Positions 1,203 through 45,499 of a stretch of DNA of 64,000 bases are shown piece after piece. The translations under genes and the position numbers were made by a program. The DNA lies in the NCBI GenBank assembly GCA_039621445.1, contig CP154954.1:22952954-23016953 (forward strand), read 5' to 3'. Origin of the DNA: Euglena gracilis. Lineage: Eukaryota. How positions within the stretch are numbered: the stretch's first letter is position 1; the number at the start of each line of letters is the position of its first letter. The notes beneath the pieces were generated by a model, which saw nothing but the letters and a program-made list of their open reading frames with translations, was not told where the DNA came from and did not search any database.

Positions 1203-3935
1203 GTGTGCTTTGAGGGGAGGCGTTCAAAGCAGGGCGTCGCCTTGGATGGAGGGGGGCCCTTCGGGCAGCCAGCCAGCAACCTTTTTCCAGCTTTGAATCC
1301 CCCCCCATCAATGAGCTTTATTTATCTGCTTGCCCAAAAAGCGGCAGAACGGTGATCAGGGGTTTTCTTAAGCCGGAGGGGACCCAAACCTCCGGGGGGG
1401 GGGGGGGGGGTCCAGCCAGCCAGCCAGCCAGCATTTTTTTTTAGCCCACCTCCCAGTCAAGCGGACCCCTCCAAGGGCGGTCTGCTGAATTAAAGTTCGG
1501 GCCAGCCTGGCAAAGCCAGGCTGGCCCAAAAAAAAAGGCGCAAAACACCGGAAATTTTCGGAAAGGGGGTTCAAAAATGGCCCAAAGTGACATTTTTGGG
1601 TGGTATTTTATATTTCACCTCCAAATTTTGCAAAAGAAACCCGGCTGGATTTGGGGCTTTTTTGACTGCTTTTGGGGTTTTTGTCGGGTTGTTGGGTGGC
1701 GTCCAGCCAGTATCTTCTTTCCAGCCAGCACCCTTTTTCCAGCCGCCGCAGGACCCCTCCCCCCCAGGGGGTGCTTAAGAGAACCTCTGGTGGTAATGAA
1801 TTTTTTGCTGGCGAAAATCGGCTGAACAGCCCAAAGTTGGTGCTGAAGAATTTTCTGCATAATTGGCAGTTCTGGGCCTATTTTTTTTGTGGTGTTGTTG
1901 TTGTTGTTGATTTTTTTGGCGCCTGGTTTGACCTCCAGTCCAGCTGGGGGGCCGAGGGCGGGGGGTCAGCCAGCAGCTTTTTTCCGGCCAGCCCAAAGCT
2001 GGCCGGAAAACCCGCCTCTGAGCCCCAGAAGTCGTTAAGCGACGTCCTGATTCAGGGAAAAGCCACCCACTGACACCCATAAACCCCCCCCCCACCTATA
2101 AGAAACCCGTTTCTTATAGGTGGGTTTCCAAAAAAAATGGCCCAAGGGGTTTCTTGTAGGTGGGGGGGGGTTACGCCAGAGGCAGGCACGCCAGAGCGTG
2201 TGCTTGCCCGAGCCTTGCTAGATCTGGCTCACGTCCATTTTTTCACTTTGGCTTTGCGGGGTGGGGTGGCTCGCTCCAAAAGATTCTTTGGAAAAGAGAG
2301 AGGATGGGAATAAAACCCGAGCTGCCTTGCCTTGGCTCCCAATATGCAAATGGAACAGATGCTCAACTTGAGTTCCGTTCTTAATATCCAACCATGCTAA
2401 AGTCGTCGCCCTTTTCGGCCCTCAGGTGATCGCGCTTTTATATGTTCCGTCCCCGGCTCTCGGCAGGTTTGGCCAGCCCCCAGACGTGGTCAGCAATGCC
2501 GTCCACCTGGAAGTGTTCCCTGCCCCTGCCCCGGCAGGTGTGTGTTCATCAAATGAGAGGTGGGGGGAGGTTTGGTCCACTGTGCCCAAGGCTCATGAAG
2601 TGGTGAAGAAATGGGTTGAGGTTGTATTTTCATAGCAGTTTAGAAAGCAAAAGCCATTGGAATCAAATATTGAATACCAGTTTGGTTTGCGTTGTATTGT
2701 TTTTGAATTCAAATTCTGTGTTTCGGACCCATTTTGCTGACTGTCAAAAGTGTGTAAAGATAATCTTAACAACAAAATATCAGGCAGTCTAATATTATTG
2801 GTCACCCAGGGGTTCCAGTGGTCTGATGACAGAGGGTAATTAAAGGACCAGGGTTTGGATTCTGATTTGTCCCAATTTTGGTCTTAAACCGATTTTTTAT
2901 TTAGACAAATATATAATTTTGCATATATATTATATTATTGTATAATATGTATAATTTTATTTAATTGTATAATATATTTAAATTATTATATATTTTTATT
3001 ATTATTATTTATTATTATATATATTTATATATATTATATATTTTATATGATATATAGTTATATATAATTATATATGATTATGTATAATTATACATAATTA
3101 TATATGATTATATAAAACAACATAATGTATCATACATATTAATATCATATAATCTATTGTATAATATGTAATATATAATGTATAATCTTTAATGTAGATG
3201 CATAATGTATAATATATGATGGATAATAGAAAATTAATACATAATATATTTTGATATATAATATATAATGTATAATATAAATATAGTACGCATATAATGT
3301 GTAATGTATTATATATAATATACATATAATAAAAGATGGCATACGTTTATACGTGTATATATGGCATACGTTTAGATCAGCTATCCCCTCTTGGTCGGGG
3401 GGGGGGGGTAGCTGATCCAAACATGCAGCATAAAGGGTGATAATTTTCAGAAAGATGTTTTTCGGGTTATTGAAAGAACACGGAAGGCCAGGATTTAGGC
3501 GGTAATTTAAGCCTAATTTTGTGACCAAAGTCAGGCCAGAAGTTCGACTTAAATTTTAGTTTAAATCCCAACCCCTATTCTTTCAATAAACTAAAAATGC
3601 ATTTCCGAAAAGTGTCACCCTCTGTGCCAGATGTTTAGATGAGCTACCCCCCCCCCCCGACTGGGAGGGAGGGATCTGGCCTAAATACATGCCATATTGT
3701 ATATACATAATTATGTACACACACACCCACCTACATATATACGTATGTGTGTATGCATGTATGGATGGATGCACGCATGTATGTGTGTATGCAGGTATGT
3801 ATGTATGCATGTATGGATGTATGTATGTATGCATGTATGGATGTATGTATGTATGTATGTATGTATGTATGTATGTATGTATGTATGTATGTATGTATGT
3901 ATGTATGTATGTATGTATGTATGTATGTATGTATG

Positions 3936-3966
<31 letters not shown>

Positions 3967-5474
3967 TGTATGTATGTATGGATGGATGGATGGATGGATG
4001 GATGTAATGTATGTATGTATGTATGTATGTATGTATGTATGTATGTATGTATGTATGCATGCATGTATGTATGTATGTATGTATGTATGTATGTATGTAT
4101 GTATGTATGTATGTATGTATGTATGTATGTATGTATGTATGTGCAAATGGAAGCAAGGTTCTACATACTCCAGGGGAACCAAGTGGAATCTCTGACGGAT
4201 TCAGGGAGGGTGGGCATTTAATTTAGGAATTAGCTTAGGGTTGGAACTGTCGCGCCGAAAATGGGCATTTTTGGGGACAGAATTAGTCTGGAATTTATCA
4301 CCTGTTGAATATGTTTTAGGGTGCCTTATTGCCTAAGATTTGCCCAATTGCGGCTAAATTTGGTTTTATTATGTCCGGAATGCAACCGAATTCCTTCCTA
4401 ATTTCCAAAAGGGGGTCCTCCAGGAATCCAGTCATAACCCCACTCTTATCCCAAACAATAACCCCGACTTGCTGGGGAAGTCGGACCCAGGTGCAACCAT
4501 ACGAACCCCCCCCCCGAAATGTTCTGCATGGCCCCGGGGGGCCATGGAAAACCTTGCTGCCATAAAAACATATGTATGTTATTTATGTTACATTATAATA
4601 TATATAAATATTGTATATGAATAATATTTGTATATATTTCATTAGTGTATTATAAGATGTTATATGTGATATATTATAGTATTAAGTGTATTTAACTGGT
4701 TTTATTTCAACTAGAATCGCTTGAAGATATATCAAATTGTAACCAGGCTGTATTTTAGTCGGGTGCTCCAAGGCCCAAAAATCCGACTCTCCCCCGGGGG
4801 GGTAGGGCACTCGGTAGGGCCTTGCAGGCACTCCGGCGCCGAAGGCGCCGGAAGGCTCAAAACAGACCTATTTTCAAGGAAAATGGCCTATTTTCTGAGG
4901 AAAGTTCCTGGGCACAGGCCGAAATCCGACCCCCCCTGAGGGGGTAGTGCCTGCCTGGGCAGGCACTCAAGGGCACTCCGGACCCCCCCGGGGGGGTTGG
5001 TAAAAAACAGCCTGATTGTAACTCAGTGACTCAGTAACCGAGTGCAACCCAAACCCTATCGTAACCCTAATCATCCCCAGCATGCCACTGGCCCCTGGCG
5101 GGCCAATGGTATGTGGCTGCCACATAATCTTAATCAAAGGCTCGGTCTGGATTGACCAGCTGTTCGTTTCGGCAACCCTCATGCTGAGGCCTCCGCTGTG
5201 TTGGCTGGCCCCAGGCATGGCGGCGTACGACGAGCTGGCCCTGCAGCGGGTCCCCGAGACCCGACTGGCACGGCACCTGCGGCACCTCGCATCCGCCGGC
5301 AGCCCCACGCCGTTCAAGCTGCAGCAATTGACACTGATGCTGGAGGGCATCACCGCAGGTATGGCTTTGAGTGCGTGGCTTGTTTTGTGATCCGCCCCCT
5401 TTTTGCTGTTTCATTGGTTTGTTTACTGGATTCTTTTATTGAATTATTGTAGTTATCATTGTCGTTGTTGTTGT

Positions 5475-5515
<41 letters not shown>

Positions 5516-8500
5516 AAGTTATTGGTGGTGGTGGTGGTGGTGGTGGTGGTGGTGGTGGTGGTGGTGGTGGTGGTGGTGGTGGTGGTGGTGGTGGCGGGTG
5601 GCGGGTGGCGGGTGGCGGGTGGCGGGTGGCGGGTGGCGGGTGGCGGGTGGTGGGTGGCGGGTGGCGGGTGGCGGGTGGTGGGTGGTGGGTGGCGGGTGGC
5701 GGGTGGCGGGTGGTGGGTGGTGGGTGGTGGTGTTAGTATTAGAAGTGGTGGTGGTGGTAGTGGTGGTGGTAGCATCATTATTATTATTATTGTTTGTTTT
5801 TGGTTTGCGGAACCCCTCATTTCCATCTTTTATGTTCATAAATATGTATATCAATGCATTCCATCATAGTAGCACATAGAAATTTTGCATATGATAACCT
5901 GGCAAAATTCGTTATTTGGGATATATTATTTTTTAAGATATTTTCTATCTGTTATGTATATTATTGTTCACAATAAAAAAATATTGTATTGTTCATTTCA
6001 TCTGATATCTTCTTTATTGGTCATCAATTTGTAGGTCTATATTGCAGTTTTAAGCATGCTTTCTTGCTTCCCTTGGGCCACCTCCGCCCACCCACGCACC
6101 CCCTCCAGGCTCATTGAAGTGCAACGAGGGGGACCTCCACGGCCGCACCGCCCTGCACCTCGCCTGCGAGCTCAGCACGCTGGGCGTCCCGGAGGCGGAG
6201 GCGGCGGTCCGGTTCCTGCTGCGGGTCGGGGCCAGCCTCTACCAGTGCGACCGGGCCGGGCTTCGGCCACTGGATGTGCTGCTGGTGTGTTGCCCGCGGT
6301 GGGGTGTCTTGGGGGATGGCCGTGTGCCCTGTTCAGACGGAACAGTGTCCGTTGAGTCTGGCATAGCCTTTTGTTGAAAGTGCTCATGGAGTTTAATTGT
6401 TCGCTGTTCTTGTTGCAGGTCTCTTTGCGAAAAAGATCATGCATTTTGTTCTCGAAACTGCAATGCCCAGGTTAAAACAGTACAATATCATAATGGCATA
6501 ATGGCAATTAACAACAACAAATAACATAAAAGTAGGTAAGTAACTTCCAGCAATAAACGTAATGAATTGATATATGTGTATTGGTGTTTGTGAGTAATTG
6601 CACACCTGCATTGGCTTTTTTCTCCATTTCTTTCGATTTGTGTGTGTGCCTTCACCGAAATATGCATGTGTTTTACTGCATCTAACCCCCCCCCCAAATG
6701 TAAGCAACCCCCTGTATAATCAACCCCCAAATGTACGCAATCTTTTGGCCAATTTTTGGCCAACACCCAAATATAAGCAACCAGGGATTCCCACAAATTT
6801 GTGCCACAAACAGTTGCGAATAATCACGAACCAGCACGAATTTGGAGAGTTTCCAAAATCACGAATAACCACGAATAAGCCACAATAATAATGAATGATA
6901 TTTTCTCTCGTTTATCAATTTGTCCCTCTGAAAATGGCTTTTCTATCAAGGATTAATTTCAAAGGGAAAACTACCATGAACCAGAGGTGAAAATTACTCA
7001 ATTTCTTGTCCTTTGTTGTCTGCTATCCTCTCTCTTATGCTCTTCTCCGTGCCCTCCCCTCTGTCCATCATTATAATCATCAGAGTCATCTCACCTGTTT
7101 TATTCCTGATGAAAATTTTGTGGAATTGGAGAACAGGTGGTTGGTGTTGGGCAGGATGGCATGCTGAATGGGGCATCACCGCCCTTACTTTATGACTTTT
7201 TGACTTATTGGAGCAATTTTGTGCCCTTTCCATCAAATTATAAATTTTGGCCATTGGTCAATCATTTTCTTTCATTATTGGGCCATTGTTGGCCATTTCG
7301 GGCATTTTGAATCAATTTTGGAATACATATATTTTTTTTGTTTTGTTTCTGCGGTCCTCCTTAAGCTTGACCCAGGCACCTAGACCATCCTTCAGAAAAT
7401 GTTTTTTCCCAAATATCTGCAATTTTTCACAAATTTCTGCGAAACACTGCAAAAATCTGCAAAATTGTTTTGTTTTACAAATGTGCATTGCTGTTTTGTG
7501 CAGGAAAAGGGAAAACCCGGACGCTGTTTGGGTAGCACGAATAATCATGAATATTCACCAATATTCACAAATCAGAATTCATGGTCATCAGCACGAACTT
7601 GTGGGAATCCCTGAAGCAACCCCTGACTGGACTATATGAAGGAGTTTCCATTAAAACGGCGTAAAAGCAGCAACAAATGTAAGCAGCCCCCAAATATAAG
7701 CCACCCCTGGAGCCTGTTTTCAGAAACTCAAGTATAAGCAACTGGTTGTTTAAATTGTTGGGGGCGGTTACACATAAGACAAGCCTAAATCCCGCGTTGA
7801 CTGGAATGGATTTGGTGGTGGGAGGTACACATCGTGGGCTGTACGAAGACAGTTGGCCATAAGGGGTTGACCAAACTTCTGGTGTTTTTGCCAACCCTGC
7901 CTGTCGAAAGTGAAAGGGAGTTTACCTTGCTGTATCGATCAATCATTTCCATCATGGATCCCCAACCCTCTGAATAGGAGACATCTGGTCAACTCAGAAA
8001 CAGCCATTTTTCATTGAAATTTTCATCTGCCTTTGGAGGCCCTCAAATCCCCTCCAAAAAAGGACGCTGGGAGCATCATATTTGAGGGGGGAGAGTTTGC
8101 CCCTCCGTTGGCAGGGAGGAGGAGATAATTTTTATTTGAATTTTATTGAGAGGTTGGTGACCTGAGGAGGGGTTCGGTGGGTGGGTCCAAACTACTGAGT
8201 GGGTACCCCCAAGGGGGGGGGGTAACCCCCTGTTGTTCAGTGCATTGTGCCAGAAGAAGGTTTGGTTGCCAAAAATGGGGTCCCTGCCAACCAGGGTACC
8301 AAGAGAGAGTTGGTTTTGAACAGGGGAAGGGGCCCTCCCCCCCCCCCGGGCTGGGGGGGCCGGGACCCCCTGGAACCAACATTTTTTCTTCCCTGGCACT
8401 TTGCGCTAGAAGAATTATTTTTTATCATCTGTTTTGTCAATTTGGTAAAAAGAAATTCAGCCTGAAAACGCAATTTGGGCACTTTTGAAGCCCCTCGAAA

Positions 8501-10005
8501 ATTCGCACTGGATTTTATCCCAGGGGGGTCGACCAGGTTTTGTGCAGTGCTGAGCTCTTCACGTGCATACTGCAGCAGCTGTTTGGGGCGTGTGGCAGCC
8601 AGGGCCTAGCGGGCCCAGCCTGGCGGCAGGCGGCCCGGCACGGTTTGGTCGGCCCGGCGGTCCGGCTCATTTTCGGTTCCAAAACAGTTTTTCCGGGTCC
8701 GGGAGGCCAAAAAATATGGTTTCGGGCAAAAAGGATTTTGATTTCTTTCGACTTTTTCGACCCAAAAAAGGCCGAAATCGACTAAGTCAAAATTTTTCAA
8801 AACACGCCAAAACTTTTCAAAATGGCCAAAACTTTTCAAAAGATTGGCCAAAAAATGGGCTAGGCGGGGAGTTGCAGGAAATCAAAATACTGTTAGATAG
8901 GGCATTTCAGGTGTCCAGACATTTCCTTTAATTCCCCACCATTTTTTGAGAAATTTTAGAAAACTGATTTTTTTTGGCCCCCCACAAAAGCGGCCAAAAC
9001 GGCCAAGTCGCGCTCTACAAGGTTTGGACCCCATCGTGGGTGAATAACTCGAGCCTGGCGGGGAGTTGGGGGTCAAACAAAGGTGATTCCAAAACTAGAA
9101 ATCCAGTCGCTCACGACTGAAAAAGGAAAAGAAATAAGAAAAGGAAAAATCCCGGCTCCGGGAACAGAGCCAGGATCATGGTGATAATCCGCCGGTTCCC
9201 GAGGTGGCCCAGACCCGGGAGGGGGGGGGGGCGGGGGGCTTCGACCCCCCTTTTCGCCCAGGGCTAGGCTTCGCTTTACCCATAAAGGGATAAGAGCTGA
9301 GTGACCCCCGCCTCCCCCCTTCTCACTCAATACCCTGCTCTCAACCCTCCCCACCACCATGCTTGGGAGTGTCTGCGTGCCGATCTGCTCCCTCTTCTCT
9401 CCCGCGCCTTTACAAAGCCTCGCCCCCCCCCACTCTCTCCCTGCCCATTCCACAGGCCCACCCCTCCTGCCCCGCCAGCCTCGTGCGCTCCCTGCTGGCG
9501 TACCGGGCGCAGTTCTACCCATTCACCGACCCGGCCCAGCGGTGGGCCCCACTGGCCGCTCCGCGGTTCCCCGCGGTGCCCCTCGCGTGGCAGCCGCCCA
9601 AGCCGGTAGTGTACGCCGCAGCCTCCACCGTCCAGCCCAACATCTTGTATTTTCTACAACAGGACGGGTACACCCTCTGTCCCTGTATTGTCCATGGTCC
9701 ATCGATGGGCTCCGCACTGTTGCTCTTTTCACATCACCAATCTCTTTTTTCTGGCATTGTTGGTACTGTTTGCCCTGCTTTTGGGCTTATTGGATGTCCA
9801 ATTTGGCCTATAATGGCCCAATAATGGAAGAAAATGATTGACCAATGGCCAAAATTTACAAAATTGGATGGAACAAGCACACAATAATGCCAAATTGGCC
9901 AATTGGCCTATTTTTGTTTCTGCATATCTTTCTGTTCATGTATGTTTTATGTTTATGTATATGTATATGTTTACAGCCATACATGTATATGAATATGTAT
10001 GTGTA

Positions 10006-21684: not shown

Positions 21685-23794
21685 CCAGAACACACCTCCC
21701 CCCCCCCCCCGAAACGCCACCCGACCCGCCTCAGAGTTGTTTCCGTTCTTTTTCTCAGTTGTACTGCGCATGCCGTCTGTCCTCCCCGTTTCCTCCCCAC
21801 CTTCATGGCATATGTTTCGGTTGATGTTTGTCTGTGTTCTTCTTTTGAACCGACGATAATTACTGCCCAACCCCTACTCATTCCTTTGCCTTCAAGGCTT
21901 TGCATGCAAACAAACATGCGGAAGGGAATGGGAATGTATTCCAAATGCAAGCTGCAAATTGATGGCATCCACGCAATCCATTGATTCTCCCAAAAAGTGC
22001 TGACCTGCAGCCCATTCAGCTCTTGGAGCTCTAAATTTGGATTATGATGTCGAATCACAACCTGCGGTTTCTGCTACAGAATCACAGATTGTCATCACCC
22101 CCTTATGTGGTGTTTTGCGCCCATTGCGTGTACGCATGAGAAATTCAGGTGGAGATTTGTTCACCTTGTTTTGGATTCTTGCACCACGTCGATGAACAGG
22201 GATGCACCAAACAGCGGTAGTCGCATGGGCAAGCCCTGGGTTGTCGAATGAAATCAAACCGATTTTAGGCTAGTGGACGCCAAGGCCCCCCAAAGAGGCT
22301 GGTAAGGCAGTGTGGCACGCCGTTATCTGTTTTGTAACGGTGACGTTGGGTACCCTTCCTTGTTGCACAAACACAGGAGTCGCCTTTCCATTTGCTTTCT
22401 CCAAATTCTGATGCCTCACATTTCAAGTGAAGGAGGTGTTTATTGGGACAATGGTGTCCTCAAGAAATGATGGTGCACAACCAGGGTCGCTCAAGTCGGA
22501 GGGCATCCCATCCCCGGTGGGGGGGGGGTTGCAGCCAGCCAGCAGCCTTTCCAGCCTCGGACCCCCTCCCCCCCATCGACAGGTTTTTTTTTGCAGCCGC
22601 CCGAAGGGTGGCTGGTCGGTGACGGATTTTTGGCTGGGCGTGGCGCCCCCCCCCCCCCCCGTGGTCCAGCTCAGAGGCTGGAAACAGTCTGCTGGCTGAC
22701 CCCGGGTCCCCAGCTGGAATTGGGCCTGAGCTGGGGTCGAACCAGGGACAGAAAATGGAAATTTTAAATATGCCCCAAAAACTGCCAGTTATGCAAACAT
22801 CGATTTTTTGACCCAAATTTGCTCTGGCCAGCCCAAATCCGACCCAATTTCACCCATTTTTCAACCTCTGAAAGCTGCAATCCTTGTAATGTTGTCCATT
22901 TCCAATCGTTCTTTGGGCCACCATCAAATCGTTCCATCGGTTAGCACAAAAACGGCCGTTTTGGCAGTACAAGGTGCCACAGATCATCACAAATTGGCAA
23001 TCAACAGGCAGCAAATTGTCGCAATCAAATGACAAACAGGAGAGGTTTTGGTTTGGATTTTTCTTATCTTGATATGGGTGGTGGATGGGCCAAGTTTTCT
23101 CTGCCCTGAATATTGCATCATCATAATCATCACATAATGATCAAGCACCTACAGTAAAAATGGCCGAAAATGGCCGAAAATGGCCGAAAATGGCCGAAAA
23201 TGGCCGAAAATGGCCGAAAATGAGAAAAAATTTGTTGCAAATTTTTTTCCAGTTTTTGTTTGCCTAACAGTTTCTTTTTCCCTGAGGAGCAATTTTCAGT
23301 GCGACTGATTCTTGTCTCTGTGCAGCCTCTCTGCTTTTGTTATTATGCCTGGCCCTGCAACACATGCTGCTCAAAGAACCACCTCTGAAAGGGTTATTTG
23401 GGCCAAAGCTGATATTTTGATGGCATTTCAGAAAAAAATTGGTGACAAGGGCGATGCTGGCAATTTTTTTTTTGTATATTTTGAAGAATTAAACCCATTT
23501 TTGGAATAATTTCTCCACAAATTCCCAATATTACTCCCATGTTGGCCATTTTGGATCAATTTTTGCTAATTTTGGATTGGGCTAATTTGGGTCAATATGA
23601 GCACATTTTATGGCATTTTGCGCCATTTTGGTGATTTTGGGTTATTTTTTCACAATTTTGTGGATATTGTTGGCGTTTTTGGGGCAAGTTTAGGTTATTT
23701 GAAGCAATTTTAGGTCATTTTGATTGCTTTTTGGGCCTTTTGCTGTCAATTTTAGGTTTTTTGTGGGCATTTTTTTTGGGGTTTCTGTGGTCAT

Positions 23795-24170
23795 GGCAGA
23801 TGCTGAACAAGATTTAGACACTGGACAAGATGTAGACACTGGACAAGATGCAGATGCTATACAAGATGCAGATGCCGGACAAGATGCAGATATTGGACAA
23901 GATACAGACGTTGTTCAAGATGCAGACACTGGACAAGATGTCGACACTGATGCAGATGCTGTACAAGATGCAGATGCTGGACAATATGCAGATGCTGTAG
24001 AAGATGCAGTGGATGCAGATACTGGACAAGATTACGATCTTGACAAGATGCAGGTATTGGATAAGATGCACACACCAGACAAGATGCAGTGATTGCTGAT
24101 GCAACGGATGTAGATATTGGACAAGATGTAGATGGTGGGCAAGATGCGATGTTGAACAAGATGCAGACAT
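23795..24170. repeat. 18-bp minisatellite (GATGCAGACACTGGACAA-like)
   Basis: About 20 degenerate units. Confidence 0.85.
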
Positions 24171-24850
24171 TGGGTGAGCACATTTGATGTCAATATTTCA
24201 ACATTATGGACCAATCACATGTTTGCTTGCTTTTGTTTGCTTTTCTTTGCTTGCACATGCTGCTCAACGAACCACCTCCAAATGGGTTATTTGGGCCAAA
24301 GCTGATGGTTTTGATGACATTTCAGAAAATTGTGGTGACAAGGTGCAACTAGGCAAAGTATGTGAAGCGTTTTTTTCTCTGTTAAAGGTGTGATTCCTGC
24401 ATTAGGTTTATTGCACACAATTGGATGGGATATAACAAACAGTGCCACCATCAAACAAATTTGCTTGGGGTATCAAGTTGGAATAGGTGAGGGGAAGTTG
24501 TTTGTGAAAAGCATCCACGCCAAGAGGCTTGAATAGAAAAGCACCAGTTTATTGTGGTTAATATGTCATGTGCCAACCACTCTCATGAAGCATCCCAAAA
24601 ACCCCCAGCAAAAAAAGACCAAAGTGGACAAGAGCCTCTCTGGCAGGAAAAAAGAAGCTTATTCCCAAAACCTTGCATTTGCATATTGCAACAAAAAACT
24701 CTTTGACCTCTTTAATCCCTGAGCACCCATTCCAAACGGACCTCTTTGGATGCGTTAGCTTGCCACAACTGCTTTCATGTTGACTGAATGGTCAAAATGT
24801 ATTGTTGGTATGAAAGAATTTTAAGGCAGCTTTGCCCCCCACCTATAGGA

Positions 24851-24930
24851 AAAAATGGCCGAAAATGGCCGAAAATGGCCGAAAATGGCCGAAAATGGCC
24901 GAAAATGGCCGAAAATGGCCGAAAATGGCG
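24851..24930. repeat. (AAAATGGCCG)n decamer array within CACCTATAG...CTATAGGTG inverted termini; sister array at 23157-23221
   Basis: Direct inspection. Confidence 0.8.
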
Positions 24931-26495
24931 AAAATCTGGGGGTCAACTATAGGTGCTTGATAATGATGATGACTTTTCGGTGGAAGCAGAAATTCATATC
25001 CGCAACAACGTCCCCGCAAATTTCCACAATTTCCGCAGTTTTCCCGCATTTTCCACCTTTTTATTTTTTTTCTCCCTCGATCCACATGAATTTGAAACAG
25101 GAGCGTTCTGAGTTCCGGCCATTCCTCAAATGGTTCGCAAGGGAATGCAAGTGCTTTTTTTTGCTATTTTTTTGTAAAAAAGAAATTGCAAAAGTTATCA
25201 AAGTTTGCCATATGTTGCAATTTTCAATTTGGGGCTTTTTTTATTTTTGTTCTTTTTTGGTGAATGGCACCTCAAACGTAAAACGAAACGAAAAAACTTC
25301 AAATGGAAAAGGAGGGAGGTAGCAGAAATGTGCACTCCCAATGTCAATTTTTCCATAGTTTTTCTGTAATTTTTTTCTCGCAGGCCTCCGACATCAATTT
25401 CACCCCTGTATCTCCCAATCGCAAGTTTCGGTTCCTGGCTTCGCTTTGCACCAAGGTCTATGAAAAAGGAGACATGCATTTTGAGAATTGGGAGTTAAAT
25501 GTTGGAAAAAGAACAAAAAATTCAATTCGGAAATTCAAACAGTTCTGCTGCCAGAAAGGAGTGGATAAAAAAGCCAGAAGACAGCACAAGACCAATGCAA
25601 AGCTGGTTTCCAAGTTCTGGCAACCTTGCAGACACAGCCTCTGGAACCCCCACCAAAAAGACAGGTGCAGCGATGTGTGTGTTTGGCAATCTCACCCTCC
25701 CGGCTCAGGGGTTGCTGGTGTGCATGTTCGTGGGTTGTTGGGGTGTTGGGGGGGGGATTGGGAAGGCAGCCTGCCAGAGAAGTGTCTCCCGGCGCCTTTC
25801 GTCCTACCCGCAGGTTCGCTGTCCACAGTTCCCTTCGCCGCCGGGGGGGCCGGCCCCGTTTGGCACGTCGCCATGCCCCAGTGCCCAGGCGGGTCTCGCC
25901 GCTCCCTTTGGCCTTCCTCCAACGCAACGCAGTGCTTTGCACAAGCCCATCAGACCGCCGGCGGCCTTGGTTTGCCCAACGGGGTGGCTTGTCAAAGGCA
26001 CCGCCCCCTCCGCTGCGTTGTCCGGGGTCCATCCCGCCATCCCGCGGTGTTCAATGGCAGGGTCCAGTCCTGCTCGCCACAATGTGGGCTCCCTCGCGCT
26101 GGGTTCAATTTGCAATGGGGAAGGGGTGGGAAAAAGGGAAACCTTGGCTCTCGCACTCCCCCAGCCAGCTCTGTGGCAGAGCGGGCTGGGGGCATTGCTG
26201 TGTCGTGTGGTGCCGTGAAAGTGTGCGGGCAGTGTGCACACACCATCACCGCAGCCCACAGAGGCTGGCTTTGGGGCAGGGGGTTGGGTGTACGCCACAG
26301 ATTTCTCAGATGCACAACGACTTAGTTCCCTCACTGCACGTGTGGGTCAATTCCCAGAAAGTTTTTTGACTTTTTGAGGTCAAATGATAATATTTGGGTC
26401 CTAATTCAGGGCGAGAAATGACAAACCCAATGGTCTGCAGGGCCCGTCCACCCCACCCCTTCAGGGAGGTCAGAGAGAAATCCCTGGTTATGTTG

Positions 26496-26632
26496 CAGGG
26501 GGGGGATATGCAACTTGCATAATTTGCATTTTTTAGCATCATCAGGTTTTTTCCGAAATTCTCATTTTTTTGCATTTTTTTGAATTTTTTTGACTTGCAT
26601 AATTTGAAGGGCCAAGTTGCATATTCCCCCTG
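26496..26632. mobile_element. hAT-like MITE
   Basis: TIR CAG(G)nATATGCAACTTG, perfect 8-bp TSD TTATGTTG. Confidence 0.9.
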
Positions 26633-33606: not shown

Positions 33607-36600
33607 GCCAGTAGGGGGGCCGCTGCCGCCGCCGGCGCCTCCCTCCCCCTCGCCGCAGTGCCGTTCTGGAGGCGGTGAAGGGTGGCGCCTCCCGGGCCCA
33701 TCGTCCCCCTTTGGTGTCGGCTGGTCACTCGGGTGGGACACCTCCCCCCCGTTGGGGATGTGGGCACAGGGTATTGAGTGAGCGTTGGTAGACCTTTTGA
33801 GACCCTTCGACGAGTCCGATAACCGTCAGTCTTGTTCTGCAATTTGGTCAACCAAGCTTGGCGGCGAAGGGGGGCGATTGCAGGAAGTACGCCTTCGTCT
33901 CGGTCATCAGCAACGAGAAGTACGTGGACGGGGCGATCGTCCTCGCTGTGTCGCTACTCAACACCTCTTACCTGTTGCAGGTGGGCCCCTTCTTCCAGGC
34001 AGTTTCTCGGTTTTAAACGTCCCACCAGTCTTCAACGTCGGCAGGGTGTCTGGGATTTGGATGTGGTGGAGTCCCCACCCCGTCAGATCCTTGGTGGTCC
34101 TGTCTTTATCCCCTCCTTGGGGGGCCATTTTCCTTTTTTTTTTGTTGTTGCCTGGCCCCCCTACACAAGGCGGTTAGGAATCTGCCCGTCGGCCAGGAGT
34201 TCCTGCATGCCACAGGGGCGTGGGACTGCAGCAACTGTTGGGGAGGGGATGGGCACACTGGCTGTGCACCCACAATTGATTTGTTATTCCTTCCTTCTGC
34301 TCCTTCTGCTCAGACGATGGTTCTTTCAAAAAGGAGGAGGAAATCGATGTCAAAAAGGAGGTCCCTCTTTGAGGGGAGCCTTTGCGTCCCGGGACCAGTT
34401 GCCTGCCTTGCCTTGCCTGGCTGTCTAAATCCGGTCCACTAGTTCAACAAAATGACGTCCCCCCACCTGGGCCACCTGCTTTCCCATCTGAAGCATTCGA
34501 CAGGCGTAATACAAAACAAAAACCAGAGCTTGTTAAGGAAAAGTGGAGAATGGAGGAAGCAGTGGTTTTGTGGCATTGCCCAAACGGCGGCACGGGCAAA
34601 AAAGGATCGGTTTGGTGACGCTGAAGGGGGACGGTCCATCGTGATCCACCTCGACTCCTGCAGGAGGGTCTGTGTGAGCTCGTGCTGCTCTGCCCACCCA
34701 CCCTCCACCCGGAGAGCCAGCGGCGGCTGCGAGCGGCGGGCAGGCGTTATTTTCAAGGAAATTTTATAAAAATAAATGTCAAGCTTTAACGCCCCTTTTA
34801 AGGTATTTAAAGGCTTTTAAAGGCTTTTTAAGTCGCTATTTTCCAGGGCTGTCCAAGGGCTATCCGGGCATCGAGCCAACATTTCTGATTTTGCATGTCG
34901 TCCAAATTCAGATGAATCAAAAAAAAATTTCTTGGGTTTTATTGGATGGACAATGTTCCAGCGATGCCAGAAATCGGTTTTCTTCCCACAGTTGGTCTGT
35001 TTCTGCCGCGATTTTAATTTGCAATGTTTGCTTGGTCAGAGAAAATTCCACCAGTCCGGATTTTTAAGGCGTTTTGAGGCATTTTGGCCAGAACTTTTCA
35101 GGTGCAGTTTAAGCCATTTTAAAGTTTTTTAAGGCGTGATAAAAAAATCATGCCTGGCCGTGGGCTACCGCCACCTGCGCAGCGTCCCCAGCCTGGCCCC
35201 CCTCGTGCCGGAGAGCCGCTGGCGGTGCCAGGGCCCCACCGCTGCAGAGCGCCACTCCAGTCAGCCCTCCCCCATCTCCAGGGCAGTGCGGGAATAGGCC
35301 AAACAGCCAGGGTGGTGGGTGGGGGGGGTCCAAGCCCTGACCATCCCTGGGGGGTCCGTGCGGGGGTCGATGCATATGCGGCTCAAGGTGCACGTCCGTC
35401 GGGGGGACGTGTGGGCCGCCGTTGCATAGGTCGTGAGGTCTGGGCACCACCCAAAAGTAATATTGCACAATTTTGTGTTTCCCTGTGCTACAGATAGTTT
35501 TGTGCGTGCGTTCATTTGTCCCCCCACCCTCAATCGGGGTATTTTTTTTAAAACAGAAATTCAAACAGGGGGGCGATGTGTGGCCATTTGAAGTACGGAA
35601 GGACTGTCAACCGTTCTTCTGCTCTGAAGAAGCGGGCAGCTAATGAATGGTGCAAAGGGAGCGGCATCGTTACAGGAGTCAAAGCAGAAGAAGAGGGATT
35701 TTTTTTTTTGTGGTGGGGGTTCGAGTGGTTTTCAATTGGTGGGTGGGTTTGGGCTGTTGGACCCACTCCCTCAGGGTCAGTCTGCACCGGTCGGAGGCTG
35801 GGCCGAGCGCAAATTTTTTGGATTTGGTACCGATTGGGGCGGGCTTTGGGGTGGTTGGGTGGGTTGGTAGACCATCCTTAGCCCCCCCCTCCCCCGGAAG
35901 CACCAAGTGAAGCTAAGCAGGCCCCTGGCCCTCGTTCCGCACCAGGCATACCAACACGGTGGGGGGTGGCTGGAGTTTACAGGGGATCTCTGGGTTGGGC
36001 GGCAAGCCCTGCCCGGGACACCTTCGACAAGCTGTACCTGTGGAACCTCACGGAGTACGCCATGGTCGCCTTCTTCGACGCCGACATGCTCGCCCTCGAC
36101 GAGCCGGACTCCGTCTTCAACTTCCCCCTCCCCAATGAGACGTTCGTCGGTGCCCTGGGCTCTGGTGTGCCATCCAAATCACGACCACGCTGGCGCAACC
36201 CCGACCCCACAGCGCCGTGCCGGGGGGGGCGGGGGTTCAGTTTCTCAGTCATTGAATGGAAGCTGAAAAGGCGCAAAGGTGCTGTGGCTTTGCGGTCGGA
36301 ATCACGCAGGGGTGCTTTTGTTGTTGGTCTTGCCGCCGCCATGCAGCAACTGGGGGACCATTTGGTCCGCCACCCCCCCCCAGGGCTGTACGGGATTCTC
36401 CGAAGCCCTTGGATAGTGGTGGGCGTCGACCCCCCCCCAGCCTTCCCGTTTCTCTTGGTCCACCAATTTCAGGTTCCCTTCCCATACAGCCCTGGCCACC
36501 CCACCTCTAATCACAGAAGTTCTCATTCTGATCTTTCCACAGGAAACAAGAAGTATTTCCAGACAGGTATGATGACCATCCTGCCCCACCGTGACATGTT

Positions 36601-36773
36601 TGATGCGCTGGTCCGCCACTTCCACGCGGGCGTCCGGACAGGCCGATACCGCGGGGTCGGCCAGGAGCTTGCCCCGACCAGTATATTTCAGTTGCAGAAT
36701 CTTTTTTTCCTTGTTTTTTTCCCTGCCTGTTTTGCTTCAAACATGTGGCCCAGGAGGAAACCATGTTGGCGAG

Positions 36774-36815
<42 letters not shown>

Positions 36816-39800
36816 AAACATCCCAGCTCGCCTCGCCTGTCCCAGTGTTTTTTTTAAACACCCGGCAGACCTGTAATTGCAAAAAAAAAAGTGTGTATTG
36901 GCTGGGCCAGCCCTCCAAAAATTGTTGAAGTGCGACGGGATAAAACAGCATGAATGCAACACAACCTCTGAAACCTACACAATCAAAAGAATATGTGATA
37001 TTCTACGTCCAACATGCACTGACGATGCATTTTCCCCTGCCGGAAGTCCCAAAGCCACCGACGGGCTAGTGACGACTCCGGCGTGCCCCTGCCGCGGACG
37101 CGAGGGACGGGGAGGTGGCCCGGGCATTCTTCGGGCCACGCTTCGTGCGGCTCTCGAATTACTACAGCATGCACCGGGCCGCATCTGAGCAGGGGGGGGG
37201 GAAAATTGATATCCGCAATTTTTCCGCAATTTCCGCAATTTTCCGCAATTTCCGCAATTTTCCGCAATTTTCCGCAATTTTTCCGCAATTTTTCCCATTT
37301 TTTTTTCCGCAGAATTTTTTTCCCACCACCGAAGATGGAAGATGCAATGAGTTCAAGCCATTCTTCAAATGGATCAACAGGTGTGCTATTGTGTTTTGTT
37401 GTTTTTTCCCCCCCAGTTTACCAATTTTTCTCACAGGTGCACCACTGGTTACAGAATTGGGTGCGTCCCACCTGTGCAAAGAACATCAAGCGTGTTGATT
37501 TGTGCTTGCCTGCATCGACGTGGGTGTTGCGGTGTTCTGAACCTCACAATTGAAAATTTTCTAAGTCCCCTCAGACAGAAATGTGTATACCCGATATCAA
37601 TTTTTCCGCAATTTTTCCGCAATTTCCGCAATTTTTCCGCAATTTTTCCGCAATTTTTCCGAAGGCCTCCGATATCAATTTTCCCCCCCCCCTGATCTGA
37701 GCCGCTGACCAAGGTGAAGCTGTTCCACTTCCGCGGTGTGTGCGTCCCCTGACGGCACATGAATTTCAGAAGCAAGTGCGGCATGCATTTGGGGTTCTGT
37801 GAGAGCAGGGCCAGCCTGCAAAATGGGTGTGACTGCATGGAACACCCGGCGCACATTTCCAGGGCTGGGTGCTTTGATTTTTGCTTTGCAATTTGCGATT
37901 TTCAATTTCAATTTGCAAAACAACGCCCAAACAAGTGTGTTCCAATTGTGGTCCAGATGAAGACGACGCCTCCCCTTCGCCATTGTTCTATCCATGCGCT
38001 CTACCATTCGGACTCTGAATTTTTGCGACCCAATTTTCTTTCCTTCCTCAGGAGTCAAGCCGTGGTTCGACAAGAGTAGGCCAGAGAACCTGCGGAAATC
38101 TGCATCTGGTGGAGGCCTGGGATTTTTTGTTGTGGTTGCCAGGGGGGGGATGGGCTGGCTTCAGCAAACCAGGTGGCTCATCGTTTCCTCCGCTGAAGTT
38201 CCTCCTCGAGAAAAAGAACGCTGCCTCCAGCGAGGCGCTTCCCCCAGGTCAGGAAGGATGACACAGTGCTGGGGAGAAAGAATCCCTGTGGGTGGCTTGG
38301 AGTTCGGTGCGGCATATCGGCTGTGGTGGGCCGGGGACGGCCCTTCTGACAGCCAACAAAATGAACAAAATGACCGTCGTTACGCTGCTGCTGCTGCTGC
38401 TGATGTGTTTGTTTGTTACATTGTGTCGGGCAGTATCTCGTGCTGCTGCATTGCGCTGTGCTGTGCACTGTGCTGTGCGGGTGCATTCACCTCGTGCGAA
38501 CCAAGTCCCAAGATGGATGGGGGTTTTTTTCAAGAGAGTGGTGGGTTTGGGCCACAGAACCCCCACCCCAGGGGTGGGGTGTGCCACAGGTACGCCCAAC
38601 TACGCCGGGTTTGCCTGGAGAATTTTCAAGGATTGGCTGGTTTCGGGTGGTTTTGGGCTGGGTGAGTGGGTGGACCCTCCCCCAGGACGGGAGGGAGGGT
38701 GGTTTTTCAAAAAGAAGAAGAAGAAGTGGACAGGTGGGCTTTTGCTTGAATAAAGTGCCCTCCCCTCTTGGATCTATGGGGGGGGATCAATGGTTTCCCT
38801 CCCCACAGCCAGCCAAACCACAGACCACCCCTCAATGCATGGGCCAGCCACCACCTGTTCGCCATTCTGCAATCTGCAAGGCACATTCTGCCAATTACGG
38901 AGATTTTTTAAGAATCCTGTGGGTTGTTGCACTGCGTTGCAAGGCGGCATGGAAGGTCCCACTCCTGGGGGGCTGTGGCAGAATGAGGGGATGCATTTTG
39001 AAACCGCTGGCCAAAGAAATCGATTTTGTTTAAGAGAAATCTTTTTGTGTCGATGGTGAGTCCCAGAACCAACACCAACACCGCTGACTGAGGCATGAAC
39101 AGGAAACCGGAAATCCTTTGGGTTGCGTCGAGGAAGAGGGTGCCCCCCGCCACGTCTCATTTTGCTGTGTTGCCAATTTGTCAGCTAAAGGTTCTTCAAC
39201 ACTTGTGGTGCCGAATGGTTTTTCGCTTGCGGAGTCAATGATAGGTGGGGGAGGGGGGGTCCCGACCACACCATTGCTCAAGTTGCATTCGAACCCACCC
39301 CCGGAGGATGACTGAATGGTTTTTTCGGTTGTGGCTCCAGACTCCCCGGGGGGGGGGGGTCGGCCAGGATTGCCCGAAAGTGGCTACCTGGCGCCTTCGC
39401 TTTCGGCGTGAAAAATTTGGTGTTTTTGGCCAAAACTCATTGATTCTGAGGCATTTTTGGCCGAGTGGTCAAAGTGACTGACCGCCCCCCCCCCGGAGTG
39501 GGGTAAACAGTGGGTGACCAGTTTTTAAAAAGTGACTGGTTTTTTTGAAAGTGGAAAGTGTCCCCCCTCCCCCCAGGGGGTCGGTAAGCAATGGCATGGT
39601 CCCCACCTCCCAGGGGGGCTTCCACCCACACCCACCAGGCCTCCTCGCAACAGGCGTCTGGCCCTGCTGGGGTGTGTGCCTGCTGCGGGGCTGCCCCGCT
39701 CAAGGGTCGGTGTGACGATGTCTGGCGGCGGTGCATTGCGCCGCGGCGTTCTCGGGGAGCGCCGGCCCCTTCCGGAGCACTACGAGCAGTTCCACCGCAT

Positions 39801-42628
39801 CGAGTACGGGCGGGGCCACGAGCCCGCCGAGGGGTGGGGCGCCGGGGCCGCCGTCGCGGGCCCAGGCGGCGGCATGGCGCGCCGCCGTCTGCCGGGGGCA
39901 CCCGGCCACCCACGTCTGGATGCTGCGGTACAGCGCCGGGACGTACGTGCAGCCCCTGCGGGCGGAGGTGCTGCGGCGGCTCAACGTGACGTACGCGGGG
40001 ATGGCCCTCCGCCCCGGGCCCGAAGGCGTGTGGCGCTGGGCCGGTGGCCCTCGCACGTTTGCCACCGAAGCCATATGGCCATGCCCTTTGGGGTTCCACT
40101 TTTCGGCAGGCGGGTGTTCTTGTTTTTTGCAACGTTGCCGGTGCATCAAATTGTGCCGCCAAACGAGAGGCAATTGATTCCAATCCTGCCAGACAAAATT
40201 TTGGTCAAGCAGCCCAAAGCTGAGTTTCGATTTCCACCGTCCAAATTTTGATGCAGGTGATGCAGTCAGTAGATCATGCTCATGGGTCTCCATTCAACAT
40301 CCATGTCAATGATCACAGAAGCGACATGCCCAGTTTTAACAGCTTTCTTGGGTTTGTTCTGATTTTTTTTAAGGTCGAAGTGCTTTCACCTTTGTTCGCT
40401 TCCACGGGAATTTCTTTTTCAATTTTCATTGTTTCTGAAAATCAGTTTGTTTTGTCCCAGAAAAAATACCACCAACGTAAAAGTCGACAATCACAACATT
40501 AATTTGTAGGCAATGTTCGTGAAATTCTTACAACCAAAAAAATTTTGTAGCAGCGGCACCAGCTCTTGGGGCCCCTTCACTCTTTGCATTGGGCTGCTTC
40601 CAAAAGCAGATGAGTTTCAATGAGGATATTGGGGTATCGGTGGTTTGCCATCATTTGCAATGCTCTCCGTGTGCCTCTTCCTTCCCTCCCTTTCTGGATG
40701 TTTTGTCTGTGTCGTGGTGTGTGCATGTGTGTGTGTGTGTGTGTATGTGTTGATGAATGGACCTCATCGCCCTGAGGTCGGTGGGGTCCCCCCTGCCTGG
40801 GAAGCCCCCCCCACCTGCCCGTCTCAGGTCATTCTTGTACCAGTGTCTGCGGCCGTTTCAATGAGTCATGCACTGACCGAGGGGAGATGCCCTGAATTTG
40901 AATTTGATGTGCACAATTACTTCTTGCAAAAAAAGCCCTGCAAGTGACAGTAGCAAGAGGAACGACTTCACATCATCTTTGCTCTGTGTTTTCTCACATG
41001 TTGTTTTTTATCTGCAGATGTGTTTTGCCATCTGCCTGCTTTTTTGGCGATGGTGCCCCGATACATGCTTGGGAAGAAGGCTCAATTTGGACCCAAAATT
41101 GACCATTGACCACAACTTCCCCATTTGACCCAAAATGGGGCCACCACATTGTCACTGAAGGGTCGCACGGACTGAGAATCCTTGTCAATCCGTACTGACA
41201 CACTGCCACAGCTCCAGCCCCCCCCCCCCCAACGCGCAACCCCGAGACACACTGGTCGGTGGCCCCTCCCTCCCCGGCTGCTGACGCTGACCCCCGTCAA
41301 CTCCTGCGCGGCACTGAGCCAGGCCCAGAGGATTTCTCAGGCCGGAGAGGACCCCCCTCCCCCCAAGGGGCTCCAGCCGGCCAGGGGTTGTTTCTTCCCA
41401 GCCAGGCTGCCAAGTCCAGTGGCACTAAACCACCCCCCCCCCGCACCTCCATCCACCTCCGTCCAACCAGTTGCTGTTTCATTCTCCATGGGTTGTCAAG
41501 GAACCCCCTGCCTTGGCTTTCCAGACAGCGTGCTCTGAATGCATCGTTGACCGCTCCAGCGCAATGCCCAGGGGCAGACGTCCGCCGCAAGGCACTGGTT
41601 GCAGGAATTACAAACAGTTCACCATTATATTTCTTCAATTCTTTTTTTGAAAGCCCCACAGTGACCTCCTGGTGTCCTGTAACCCCCCTCCCCCATGTGA
41701 GCAACCCCCTCTTGCAGCAACCCCCAAATATGCGCAACCCCCAAATATAATCAACCTCTGACTGAATGATATGAAGGAATTTGCATTAAAACGGTATAAA
41801 AACGGCAGATATCAGCTTATTCTAAATATGGCCAACCCCAAATACACCCAAAACCTTAAAAAATGGGGGTTGAGTAAACCCCCCCAAATAACACCCCCCC
41901 CCAGTGGGTTATTTGGGCACCCGAACTGAGGCCCCAGGGGGATGTCATTTGGGGGGGGGGGTTATTTTTGCATGGAAAGCCAAACGAAAACAGGGGGGGT
42001 GTTATTTGGGTGCTCGAAATCGGCCCTCGAGGGGGGGGGGGTGTTATTTTGGGGGGGGTTGGGGGGGTGTTATTTGGGGGGGGGTTAGTTTTTTCCGATG
42101 TTCTTTTTTTCCCGACCACCCCACCTGGGTTGGAGGCCTCCCAGTCACAGGGGTTGCCCTCTGGGGGTCCAGGACCCCTGAAATTTTCCTTCCCCGGCAC
42201 TTCGTGTTGGGAAGTGAAGTTTTGAATACATTTTTGCCAATTTCTTTTAAAAGTGCGCAAGAACGTGATTTTGAGGGTTTATGCCCGAAAAAAGTTTTCT
42301 GCCATTTTTGCGCCGAGTTTTCTCGTGACCAATGTCCCCCCTCCAAAGCCCCCTCCTTCCAAGAAATTTTGCACCTGCCTGCATCTGACCAGAGGGCCCA
42401 GCCAATCCCCTCCAATATCCCCAGGTGGTGACACAACAAGGTGATTGCGGCTGATAAACAAGGGTTGTATGTGGTTGATCCACCTCTGCCTCACCGACCC
42501 CGTGGATCCAGCCCAAATCCTCCCAGTGCTTCATCAACTTCTTATACAACCCAGCGACCATGCCAACGTGCCGCGCCAGCGATCCAGGAGCTCGCAGATT
42601 ATGCGCCTGTTCACCAACAACGGGTTGA
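33607..42628 (+). CDS. Glycosyltransferase family 8 (glycogenin-like) protein with Cys-rich C-terminal domain; start not identified
   Basis: Exons ~33607-33674, 33884-33980, 34664-34737, 35162-35225, 36017-36164, 36543-36658, 37097-37186, 37699-37735, 38052-38113, 38294-38329, 39775-39830, 39871-40025, 40828-40878, 41276-41322, 41516-41566, 42494-42628. GT8 motifs in order: YAFVSVISNEKYVDGAIVLAVSL, TFDKLYLWNLTEY, DxD (FFDADML), YFQTGMM, HFRGVKPW, LWWEHY. Confidence 0.85.
33884..33980 (+). CDS. GT8 exon (KYAFVSVISNEKYVDGAIVLAVSLL)
   Basis: Glycogenin-type N-terminal motif, AG/GT boundaries. Confidence 0.85.
34664..34737 (+). CDS. GT8 exon (EGLCELVLLCPPTLHPESQRRLRAA)
   Basis: ctgcag acceptor; matches the glycogenin beta2-helix pattern. 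Confidence 0.75.
35162..35225 (+). CDS. GT8 exon (GYRHLRSVPSLAPLVPESRWR)
   Basis: Flanked by two non-conventional introns; in phase. Confidence 0.7.
36017..36164 (+). CDS. GT8 catalytic exon with DxD motif
   Basis: DTFDKLYLWNLTEYAMVAFFDADML. Confidence 0.9.
36543..36658 (+). CDS. GT8 exon (NKKYFQTGMMTILPHRDMFDAL...)
   Basis: ccacag acceptor; equivalent of the FNSG motif. Confidence 0.8.
37097..37186 (+). CDS. GT8 exon (DARDGEVARAFFGPRFVRLSNYYSMHRAAS)
   Basis: Equivalent of the DQG.LN..F...L...YN region. Confidence 0.75.
37190..37694. mobile_element. MITE that constitutes a GT8 intron
   Basis: Perfect 24-bp TIR CA(G)10AAAATTGATATC, flanking ATCTGAG duplication, subterminal CCGCAATTTTT arrays. 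Confidence 0.9.
37699..37735 (+). CDS. GT8 exon (EPLTKVKLFHFR)
   Basis: First half of the HF.G..KPW motif, GTGTGT donor. Confidence 0.8.
38052..38113 (+). CDS. GT8 exon (GVKPWFDKSRPENLRK...)
   Basis: KPW motif after an ttcctcag acceptor; 3' end uncertain. Confidence 0.65.
39775..40025 (+). CDS. GT8 exons EHYEQFHRIEYG and AWRAAVCRGHPATHVWMLRY...PGPEG, split by a ~40-nt intron
   Basis: Two GC3-rich segments in different frames. Confidence 0.65.
40828..42628 (+). CDS. GT8 C-terminal Cys-rich domain exons (40828-40878, 41276-41322, 41516-41566, 42494-42628)
   Basis: SCTSVC..FNESC / VNSCAAL / CSEC / CFIN / TCRASDPGARRLCAC then TGA. Confidence 0.7.
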
Positions 42629-45207: not shown

Positions 45208-45499
45208 CTATGCAAAGGAAGCAGTCCTCGCATTCTGAATGATTTGAAGGAGTGCTGAAGAAATACAAAGACAACATGATCACAGGACGGAATTGAACCT
45301 GAACCAAGTACAACAAAAAGGAGGACGCCAAGGACAACAGGACCAACAGCGACCTTATCAGCCTTTTTCTTATCCTCTGGGTGAACTTTCTTTCCGATTT
45401 GGCCGTTGTATTTATCAGACCTCTTGGAAATTGTCCTTGGTTTACCAGGCTGAAAGTCAAAATATTGGTTGGCGCATGGAAACAGGACGCCCACACCAT
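45208..45499 (-). CDS. SERP1: Stress-associated ER protein / ribosome-associated membrane protein 4 (RAMP4/SERP1), 66 aa
   Basis: Exons 45497-45499 (ATG), 45299-45449, 45208-45254 with 47- and 44-nt GT-AG introns give MPGKPRTISKRSDKYNGQIGKKVHPEDKKKADKVAVGPVVLGVLLFVVLGSALLQIIQNARTASFA*, carrying the VGP..L....FVV.GSA..QII tail-anchor signature. Confidence 0.92.

Follow-up and report, generated by a model that had tools for sequence, protein, structure and literature searches.

A CAG...CTG insertion with an intact 8-bp duplication in Euglena gracilis and its fit to the nonconventional-intron code

The origin and the removal mechanism of euglenid nonconventional introns have been an open question since the 1990s. 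The proposal that they derive from MITEs (miniature inverted-repeat transposable elements) dates from 2013. A 64,000-nt stretch of the Euglena gracilis genome (GenBank assembly GCA_039621445.1, contig CP154954.1, positions 22,952,954 to 23,016,953, forward strand; here called the window, with positions counted from its first letter) raises the question at a single locus. At 4744-5014, a short element with CAG...CTG ends lies between two copies of an 8-nt sequence. Is it an insertion of the kind that becomes a nonconventional intron, and what would happen to it in a transcript? The element is probably a small non-autonomous DNA transposon insertion with terminal inverted repeats (TIRs), one of a mobile CAG...CTG class that also supplies nonconventional introns, and as part of a transcript it would be spliced.

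The first-pass annotation of the window had claimed a CAG...CTG MITE of the hAT type at 4736..5022, flanked by a perfect 8-bp target-site duplication (TSD). The structure is real and consists of the following parts:

4736..4743, no strand: left copy of the TSD, ATTGTAAC (repeat listing, 100%, family D6)
4744..5014: non-coding TIR element of 271 nt with CAG...CTG ends, a GC-rich hairpin-forming interior and short internal repeats
4744..4757, plus strand: left TIR CAGGCTGTATTTTA, 0 mismatches
5001..5014, minus strand: right TIR, CAGGCTGTTTTTTA on the minus strand, top-strand end TAAAAAACAGCCTG, 1 mismatch
5015..5022: right copy of the duplication, ATTGTAAC, a direct repeat matching the left copy at 8/8 positions

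The locus is a CAG...CTG insertion with an intact 8-bp duplication. The TIR is matched at 13/14 positions, and the two ends share the motif CAGGCTGT[A/T]TTTTA. Since the adjoining outer bases differ on both sides (...atatcaa before the left ATTGTAAC, tcagtg after the right ATTGTAAC), the duplication is exactly 8 nt long. Several short repeats and C/G-run palindromes occupy the interior. In an RNA fold including 13 nt of the left and 15 nt of the right flank, the ends pair via the TIR stem and close the element. The minimum free energy was -146.5 kcal/mol (z -5.7), none of 200 shuffles was equally stable, and the centroid fold pairs the ends as well. The longest stop-free frames over 4700-5060 comprise 74 aa, starting in the left flank, and 62 aa, entirely within the element. 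For the 62-aa frame no relative was found in a word-indexed protein library, in which lengths of 34-109 aa were searched. Its comparison with representative proteins gave two matches, both long tandem-repeat open reading frames (ORFs) with 45-48% identity over short stretches, which were judged unrelated.

That an inverted and a direct repeat coincide here by chance is practically negligible as an explanation. The 14-mer end motif alone is weak evidence, with two or more matches in 6/100 shuffles. A combined test considered CAG...CTG pairs with a spacing of 40-3000 nt whose ends are complementary at 12/14 positions or more, in the window and in 200 dinucleotide-preserving shuffles. The window holds 30 such pairs, compared with 9.4 on average and at most 18 in the shuffles. 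Among the 30, one pair shows a flush duplication at 8/8 and another two show a repeat run of 8 nt; 0/200 shuffles contained any pair of this kind. Chance origin is effectively refuted by this test, and the same 64 kb contain three more CAG...CTG elements with intact repeats.

A code for Euglena nonconventional introns has been defined by knock-in experiments as 5'-N3-CDG/CH'G-N5-6|R; the regions that follow CAG and precede CTG pair with each other (Nomura et al., 2025; PMC12501133). The donor spacer is strictly 3 nt, the acceptor spacer works best at 5 nt with 6 nt tolerated, and the downstream exon starts with a purine (PMC12501133). Applied to the element, the N3-CAG/CTG-N5|R rule outlines one segment:

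4741..5019, plus strand: segment predicted to be removed if transcribed, 279 nt (271 + 8)

On the 5' side, 4741-4746 reads AAC-CAG, in agreement with the 3-nt donor spacer. On the 3' side, 5012-5020 reads CTG-ATTGT|A, which provides the 5-nt spacer and the purine A as downstream exon start. The element satisfies every sequence rule of the published code; its splicing is a prediction drawn from the letters. The code-based cut restores ATTGT|AAC, and both junctions are T|A. The earlier arithmetic, in which the spacers of 3 and 5 nt add up to one 8-bp duplication, is correct: the segment comprises the element and one duplication copy.

In a transcript, the inverted repeats would pair and present CAG and CUG at the base of a stem. 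The nonconventional splicing machinery would then make one cut 3 nt upstream of CAG and another 5 nt downstream of CUG. If the duplication measures 8 bp, each cut would land between bases 5 and 6 of its copy. Because the cuts fall at the same position of both copies, removal from the RNA would be seamless. Exactly one duplication copy would stay in the mRNA, restoring the sequence from before the insertion; the other would leave with the excised intron.

Introns with such ends are in use in one gene of the window. Only introns fixed by RNA joints or by gapless homology were considered; mapping of the spliced orthologue P0003 gave intron lengths, mostly not exact borders. The introns are:

33976-34658: GT-AG intron, fixed by an RNA-only joint
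34738..35161, plus strand: nonconventional intron consisting of the CAG...CTG element 34741-35156 and 8 nt, ends CAGGCGTTATTTT/AAAAATCATGCCTG, fixed by homology
35226..36016, plus strand: nonconventional intron N3-CAG...CTG-N5, 791 nt (783 + 8), flanks matching at 4/8 positions
36659..37096, plus strand: RNA-proven nonconventional intron GGC-CAG...CTG-CCGCG|g, 438 nt (430 + 8), joint 36658->37097 in the sequencing runs X21 and X15, not in X13
40877..41273, plus strand: RNA-proven nonconventional intron without CAG/CTG, with GAGGGG/CCCCTC pairing, spacers 2+5 and a 3-nt junction repeat

RNA-only joints define 33976-34658, 36659-37096 and 40877-41273, among the joints listed (86 more exist). The introns 34738-35161 and 35226-36016 were fixed with P0002, the unspliced ORF of a relative, which is continuous over the region. 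Removal of both introns yields an 89-aa gapless, stop-free alignment to P0002. When borders within about 13 nt were tried, the best removal lengths were exactly 424 and 791 nt, in each case the CAG..CTG span plus 8. Removal of span plus 8 applies to 3/3 CAG/CTG introns, with 36659-37096 based on RNA among the joints listed and the other two on homology. The element 34741-35156 has the same end type as 4744-5014 (CAGGC..ATTTT / AAAA..GCCTG) and an unrelated interior. The flanks of its intron, gcggc|GGG and GCCGT|ggg, match at 6/8 positions, and both mismatches lie in the intronic N5. An identity of 6/8 was reached by 1/114 local control comparisons. The intron holds repeated sequence, with a bin depth of 5,485 and loose ends from other copies. 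Summed over the three CAG/CTG introns, flank identity is 13/24 compared with a control mean of 7.96 (P ~0.02, n=3).

Mobility of the class is documented by a sister element in an exon of the same gene:

37190..37694: sister element of 505 nt, perfect 24/24 TIR CAGGGGGGGGGGAAAATTGATATC, subterminal tandem repeats, flush 7-nt duplication ATCTGAG, 8-nt run ATCTGAGC when the C of CAG is counted

Reads were mapped to 32600-45600 from the RNA runs X21 and X24, together with contigs of X15 (guessed RNA) and X13 (guessed DNA). X13 acts as DNA, covering bins of zero depth in both RNA runs and keeping the introns 33976-34658 and 36659-37096. A 1231-nt X13 contig with a depth of 43.1 (other single-copy X13 pieces, 33-43) joins 37182->37695 and skips 512 nt, with an 8-nt ambiguity. 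The X13 genome therefore lacks the 505-nt element and has a single ATCTGAGC copy. The window haplotype carries a recent insertion, and the coding exon is truly polymorphic for it. The exon is conserved: P0003 aligned across the site without a gap, the window reading NYYSMHRAASE|PLTKVKLFHFRG versus NYYSLYRPASQSLARIKVFHFRG. Pfam matches of that protein were sub-threshold only (GT8, 16.7 bits, cut-off 24.3; GT18, 18.3 bits, cut-off 28). Summed X13 contig depth inside the element is 257,000-347,000, versus about 30-150 in most other bins. This depth is not a copy number, and its extreme height indicates a highly repeated element. Members of the CAG...CTG class are still mobile, land in coding exons and are also present as fixed nonconventional introns.

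An unbiased scan of the window accepted inverted-repeat ends of every kind (exact seed of 6 nt, match of 12/14 or better) next to a flush direct repeat of at least 6 nt. It gave nine rows, two of them internal to a 68-nt TIR, one a register shift and one a low-complexity CG pair. The five elements left all begin with CA and end with TG, and their flush duplications measure 8, 8, 7, 7 and 7 nt. Rows with CAG...CTG ends and a flush repeat of at least 7 nt number four, namely 4744-5014 and its three sisters; in two of the three 7-nt cases, the repeat run is 8 nt when the C of CAG is counted. The remaining elements, including an older one, are:

6782..7613: sister element of 832 nt, TIR CAGGGATTCCCACAA matched at 15/15, then 22/24, flush 7-nt duplication AAGCAAC, 8-nt run with the C of CAG
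26277-26884: sister element with a 7-nt flush duplication, flank of low complexity
23142..24959: TIR element of 1818 nt, ends CAAG...CTTG, 8-bp duplication ATAATGAT without mismatch
1357..1789: older CAGGGG...CCTCTG element of 433 nt, flanks matching at 5/8 with all three mismatches transitions, nested in the CAGGGCGT-ended element 1230-2049

Older-looking CAGGG-ended elements with a flank identity of 5-6/8 lie at 1357-1789, 12550-12977 and 36381-36494. When end trinucleotides were compared at a loose threshold (10/12), CAG...CTG pairs were not in excess over other trinucleotides, because low-complexity pairs dominate.

Several results weigh against the reading of 4744-5014 as a transposon of an intron-supplying class. 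Blastn detected no further copy of the element within the window, the longest match being at most 22 nt, and two metagenome pattern scans and two protein-library searches returned 0 other copies. The scan of 276 window ORFs against Pfam revealed no transposase, including no hAT domain. The three sisters (6782, 37190 and 26277) carry flush duplications of 7 nt, not 8. For 37190-37694, restoring the empty site takes removal of 512 nt; the N3/N5 rule gives 513, and a frameshift would follow. Flank identity of the introns 35226-36016 (4/8) and 36659-37096 (3/8) is at chance level, with control means of 2.5 and 2.8. The intron 36659-37096 shows a 1-nt junction repeat and no duplication left; 40877-41273 has other end letters and a repeat of 3 nt. 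The joint 37182->37695 also occurs in RNA, in seven X21 reads and one X15 contig. These reads probably derive from the empty allele and not from splicing, because the X21 letters upstream are all of the non-window type: at 36568 and 36596, in the exon just upstream of the insertion, this applies to 13/13 letters, which are common to X13. Other X21 variant sites are mixed, with non-window letters in 4/7, 6/8, 5/7, 7/17, 292/453 and 148/264 cases. The uniform letters at 36568/36596 point either to an organism without the insertion haplotype here or to a depletion of mRNA from that allele. Such a depletion is what a 1-nt mis-splice followed by decay would predict.

These results support the earlier interpretation in part. 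Its anatomy and arithmetic stand, and the removal of span plus 8 and the exon polymorphism are in its favor. The term MITE fits a small TIR insertion with an 8-bp TSD, and TIRs, flush duplication and small size without coding capacity were all found. The term also implies many copies, and the window holds one; the element is called MITE-like here. The hAT assignment had been drawn from the length of the duplication and the end letters; the lack of a transposase among the scanned ORFs and three sisters with 7-nt duplications speak against it, and the 8-bp duplication and CAG/CTG ends of 4744-5014 may be described as hAT-like. The statement that any such element in an exon would be excised seamlessly overlooks the acceptor purine rule, and removal at 37190 would be 1 nt off. 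The match of 3+5 to an 8-bp duplication is not universal, because the sisters have 7-nt duplications and the code tolerates a 6-nt spacer.

Other explanations have to be weighed against the same evidence. The element might come from another superfamily than hAT, one whose duplications measure 7-8 bp, in which case the hAT label would be wrong even if the rest holds. This is rather unlikely. It would account for the flush duplications of 8, 8, 7, 7 and 7 nt in the five CA...TG elements and for the lack of a hAT transposase domain in the 276 scanned ORFs. The hAT end consensus is YARNG. The end CAGGC of 4744-5014 agrees with it at 4/5 positions, its fifth base being C instead of G, in line with another superfamily. 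Against another superfamily, most sisters start with CAGGG and agree at 5/5, and an 8-bp duplication is the feature by which MITEs have been assigned to hAT (PMC7385995). A different objection accepts the transposon and regards the agreement between the 8-bp duplication and the 3+5 spacers as a coincidence. The machinery would measure fixed stem distances, and elements that happened to fit became introns. The 7-nt flush duplications of 3/5 intact elements, the acceptor tolerance of 5-6 nt (PMC12501133), the other letters and 2+5 spacing of the intron 40877-41273 and the chance-level flanks of 2/3 CAG/CTG introns are all in line with it. A coincidence is nevertheless unlikely. Span plus 8 is removed in 3/3 CAG/CTG introns, the RNA-based one among the joints listed, and 34738-35161 keeps 6/8 flank identity with mismatches limited to the unconstrained half. 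A published new intron has an 8-nt repeat (PMC4770533), and the summed flank identity exceeds its control, in a very small sample.

It is quite improbable that 4741-5019 is a working nonconventional intron of an unannotated transcript, e.g. in the 5' region of a downstream gene, with its repeat left by double-strand-break repair. The element meets all sequence rules of the code, and such repair has been proposed for the strain-specific new gapC intron of E. agilis, which has eight-nucleotide direct repeats (PMC4770533). For 2500-9000, no RNA run is listed as a match; six guessed-RNA runs contain 5-9% of its words. The element is, however, outside any supportable gene. Upstream lies AT-rich simple sequence with a (GTAT)n array, downstream GC-rich DNA with a (TGG)n/(GGTGGCG)n array, and these simple repeats confine the element to ~4143-5522. 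A search of longer proteins gave no relative of the downstream ORF 5156-5449. Ank at 6054-6374, the Pfam match closest by, scores below the cut-off (20.2 versus 21.1 bits). The 24/24 TIRs, subterminal repeats and very high depth of the 37190 sister are transposon anatomy and not repair filler. An inserted CAG...CTG transposon remains the preferred reading of 4744-5014.

A broader proposal can be made tentatively as a reasonable possibility. Nonconventional splicing may, in its form, be the RNA-level reversal of CAG...CTG transposon insertion, by a machinery that co-evolved with this class or was recruited for it, hence the colonization of exons and the majority of introns. The 3+5 spacing may then exist because of the 8-bp duplication. 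Under this proposal, the window would hold three stages side by side: the free element at 4744, the polymorphic exon insertion at 37190 and the fixed intron element at 34741, in which the duplication has decayed only in the intronic half. The proposal predicts seamless splicing for insertions with an 8-bp duplication and a purine at position 6, and removal off by one base for 7-bp insertions. It also predicts that decay of the duplication is confined to the intronic halves. With CAG...CTG elements that have intact duplications, one of them polymorphic in an exon, and one element that is a fixed intron, the hypothesis becomes testable.

The remainder of the window contains further repeats and genes. 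Close to either end, the element 23142-24959 carries (AAAATGGCCG)n arrays, and its middle holds an 18-nt tandem array. A 271-nt element at 32099-32369 has 53-nt inverted repeats starting with the telomere-like TAGGGTTAGG, then a (CTGT)n array. Read on the minus strand, its right end is CAGGGCGTAGGGTTAGG, of the same CAGGGCGT type as the ends at 1230 and 12550. A 2.6-kb segment at 7238-9861 lies between 68-nt inverted repeats (88%), and its ORFs are without Pfam match. C-run/G-run palindromes (CCCCCCCGGGGGGG and similar) recur throughout the window (12575, 13651, 32018, 39344, 54787, 61451-61641) and inside several CAG...CTG elements. A 3-kb segment at 54558-57546 is bounded by 40-nt inverted repeats (90%) and encloses tRNA-Ile(AAT) at 55125-55196 and tRNA-Val(TAC) at 55245-55318, both on the minus strand.

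The 276 ORFs scanned against Pfam comprise 17 of the stop-to-stop frames of at least 100 aa and 259 of 282 frames of at least 90 aa, some counted twice. Left out before the 259-ORF scan were 55 of 337 frames, for low complexity, and 23 frames in the retroelement region, two of which belong to the 17-ORF set. Matches above the cut-off were RVT_1, RAMP4 and Dam; Ank, Ank_3, AcrIIA4 and an apicomplexan microprotein were sub-threshold. The region 45303-52090 on the plus strand is a retrotransposon with ORFs of 487 and 1843 aa, the latter containing RVT_1 (E 1.1e-12). On the minus strand, 45150-45521 holds a highly expressed gene of the RAMP4 family (Pfam 36.4 bits) with GT-AG introns of 44 and 47 nt and hundreds of RNA reads. 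The ORF 62331-62918, also on the minus strand, contains a DNA N6-adenine methyltransferase domain of the Dam type that passes the Pfam cut-off (42.6 bits). Such a domain is unusual in eukaryotic nuclear DNA and may stem from a mobile element or a virus.

MITE-like insertions have been proposed as the source of nonconventional introns, with direct repeats at most junctions, at a time when no transposable elements were known in euglenids (Milanowski et al., 2014; PMC3935182). CAG and CTG occupy +4..+6 and -8..-6 in 33/55 introns, and both junctions are of the pyrimidine|purine type (Milanowski et al., 2016; PMC4770533). The junction preference is also given in a review (PMC11282704) and would be expected if a single target position were present in two copies. 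The review applies the term 'TIR' to CAG/CTG, describes the junction repeats as 'TSD-like' and states that the introns leave as full-length circles (PMC11282704). In E. agilis, nonconventional introns account for 71.8% of all introns (PMC12501133). The same work counts short direct repeats at 84.4% of all introns and suggests that the machinery may buffer the effects of transposon insertions. This study of 2025 still calls the intron origin unclear, and its datasets contain no distribution of sliding distances or repeat lengths. The MITE idea has been repeated for diplonemids (PMC12621601). A full-text literature search, with most subscription journals outside its range, returned in the accessible text no identified transposon family, no hAT named for euglenids and no statement that 3+5 equals the duplication length. 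Earlier papers already contain the transposon origin, the TSD-like junction repeats and an 8-base repeat at one new intron; the present result is an extension, not a discovery. What it adds are specific elements, an exon insertion that is polymorphic and an intron whose duplication has half decayed, and it gives the published transposon-origin idea concrete sequence support.

Compared with known systems, 4744-5014 shares with euglenid nonconventional introns CAG at +4..+6, CTG at -8..-6, paired ends, the purine start and pyrimidine|purine junctions (Nomura et al., 2025, PMC12501133; Milanowski et al., 2014, PMC3935182; 2016, PMC4770533). In contrast to the RNA-proven introns of the window, among the joints listed, it shows an 8-nt junction repeat without mismatch and a TIR of 14 nt, and its removal from RNA is a prediction. 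The intron 36659-37096 has a short imperfect end stem besides its 1-nt repeat, and 40877-41273 combines the lack of CAG/CTG with its 3-nt repeat. Like the hAT MITEs BniHAT-1/2, which were assigned to hAT by their 8-bp TSD (PMC7385995), the element is small and has short TIRs, an 8-bp duplication and no coding capacity. Unlike hAT MITEs, it is GC-rich and not AT-rich inside, its sisters have 7-nt duplications, and the scanned ORFs include no hAT transposase. It also resembles the introners of Micromonas, dinoflagellates and Fritillaria, in which DNA-transposon ends and a duplication supply the splice signals and insertion into exons is tolerated (PMC11282704). Introners are removed by the spliceosome, with one splice site co-opted from the duplication. 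Elements of the 4744 type would instead be removed by the non-spliceosomal-looking euglenid pathway that releases full-length circles (PMC11282704), with both cuts inside the duplication copies.

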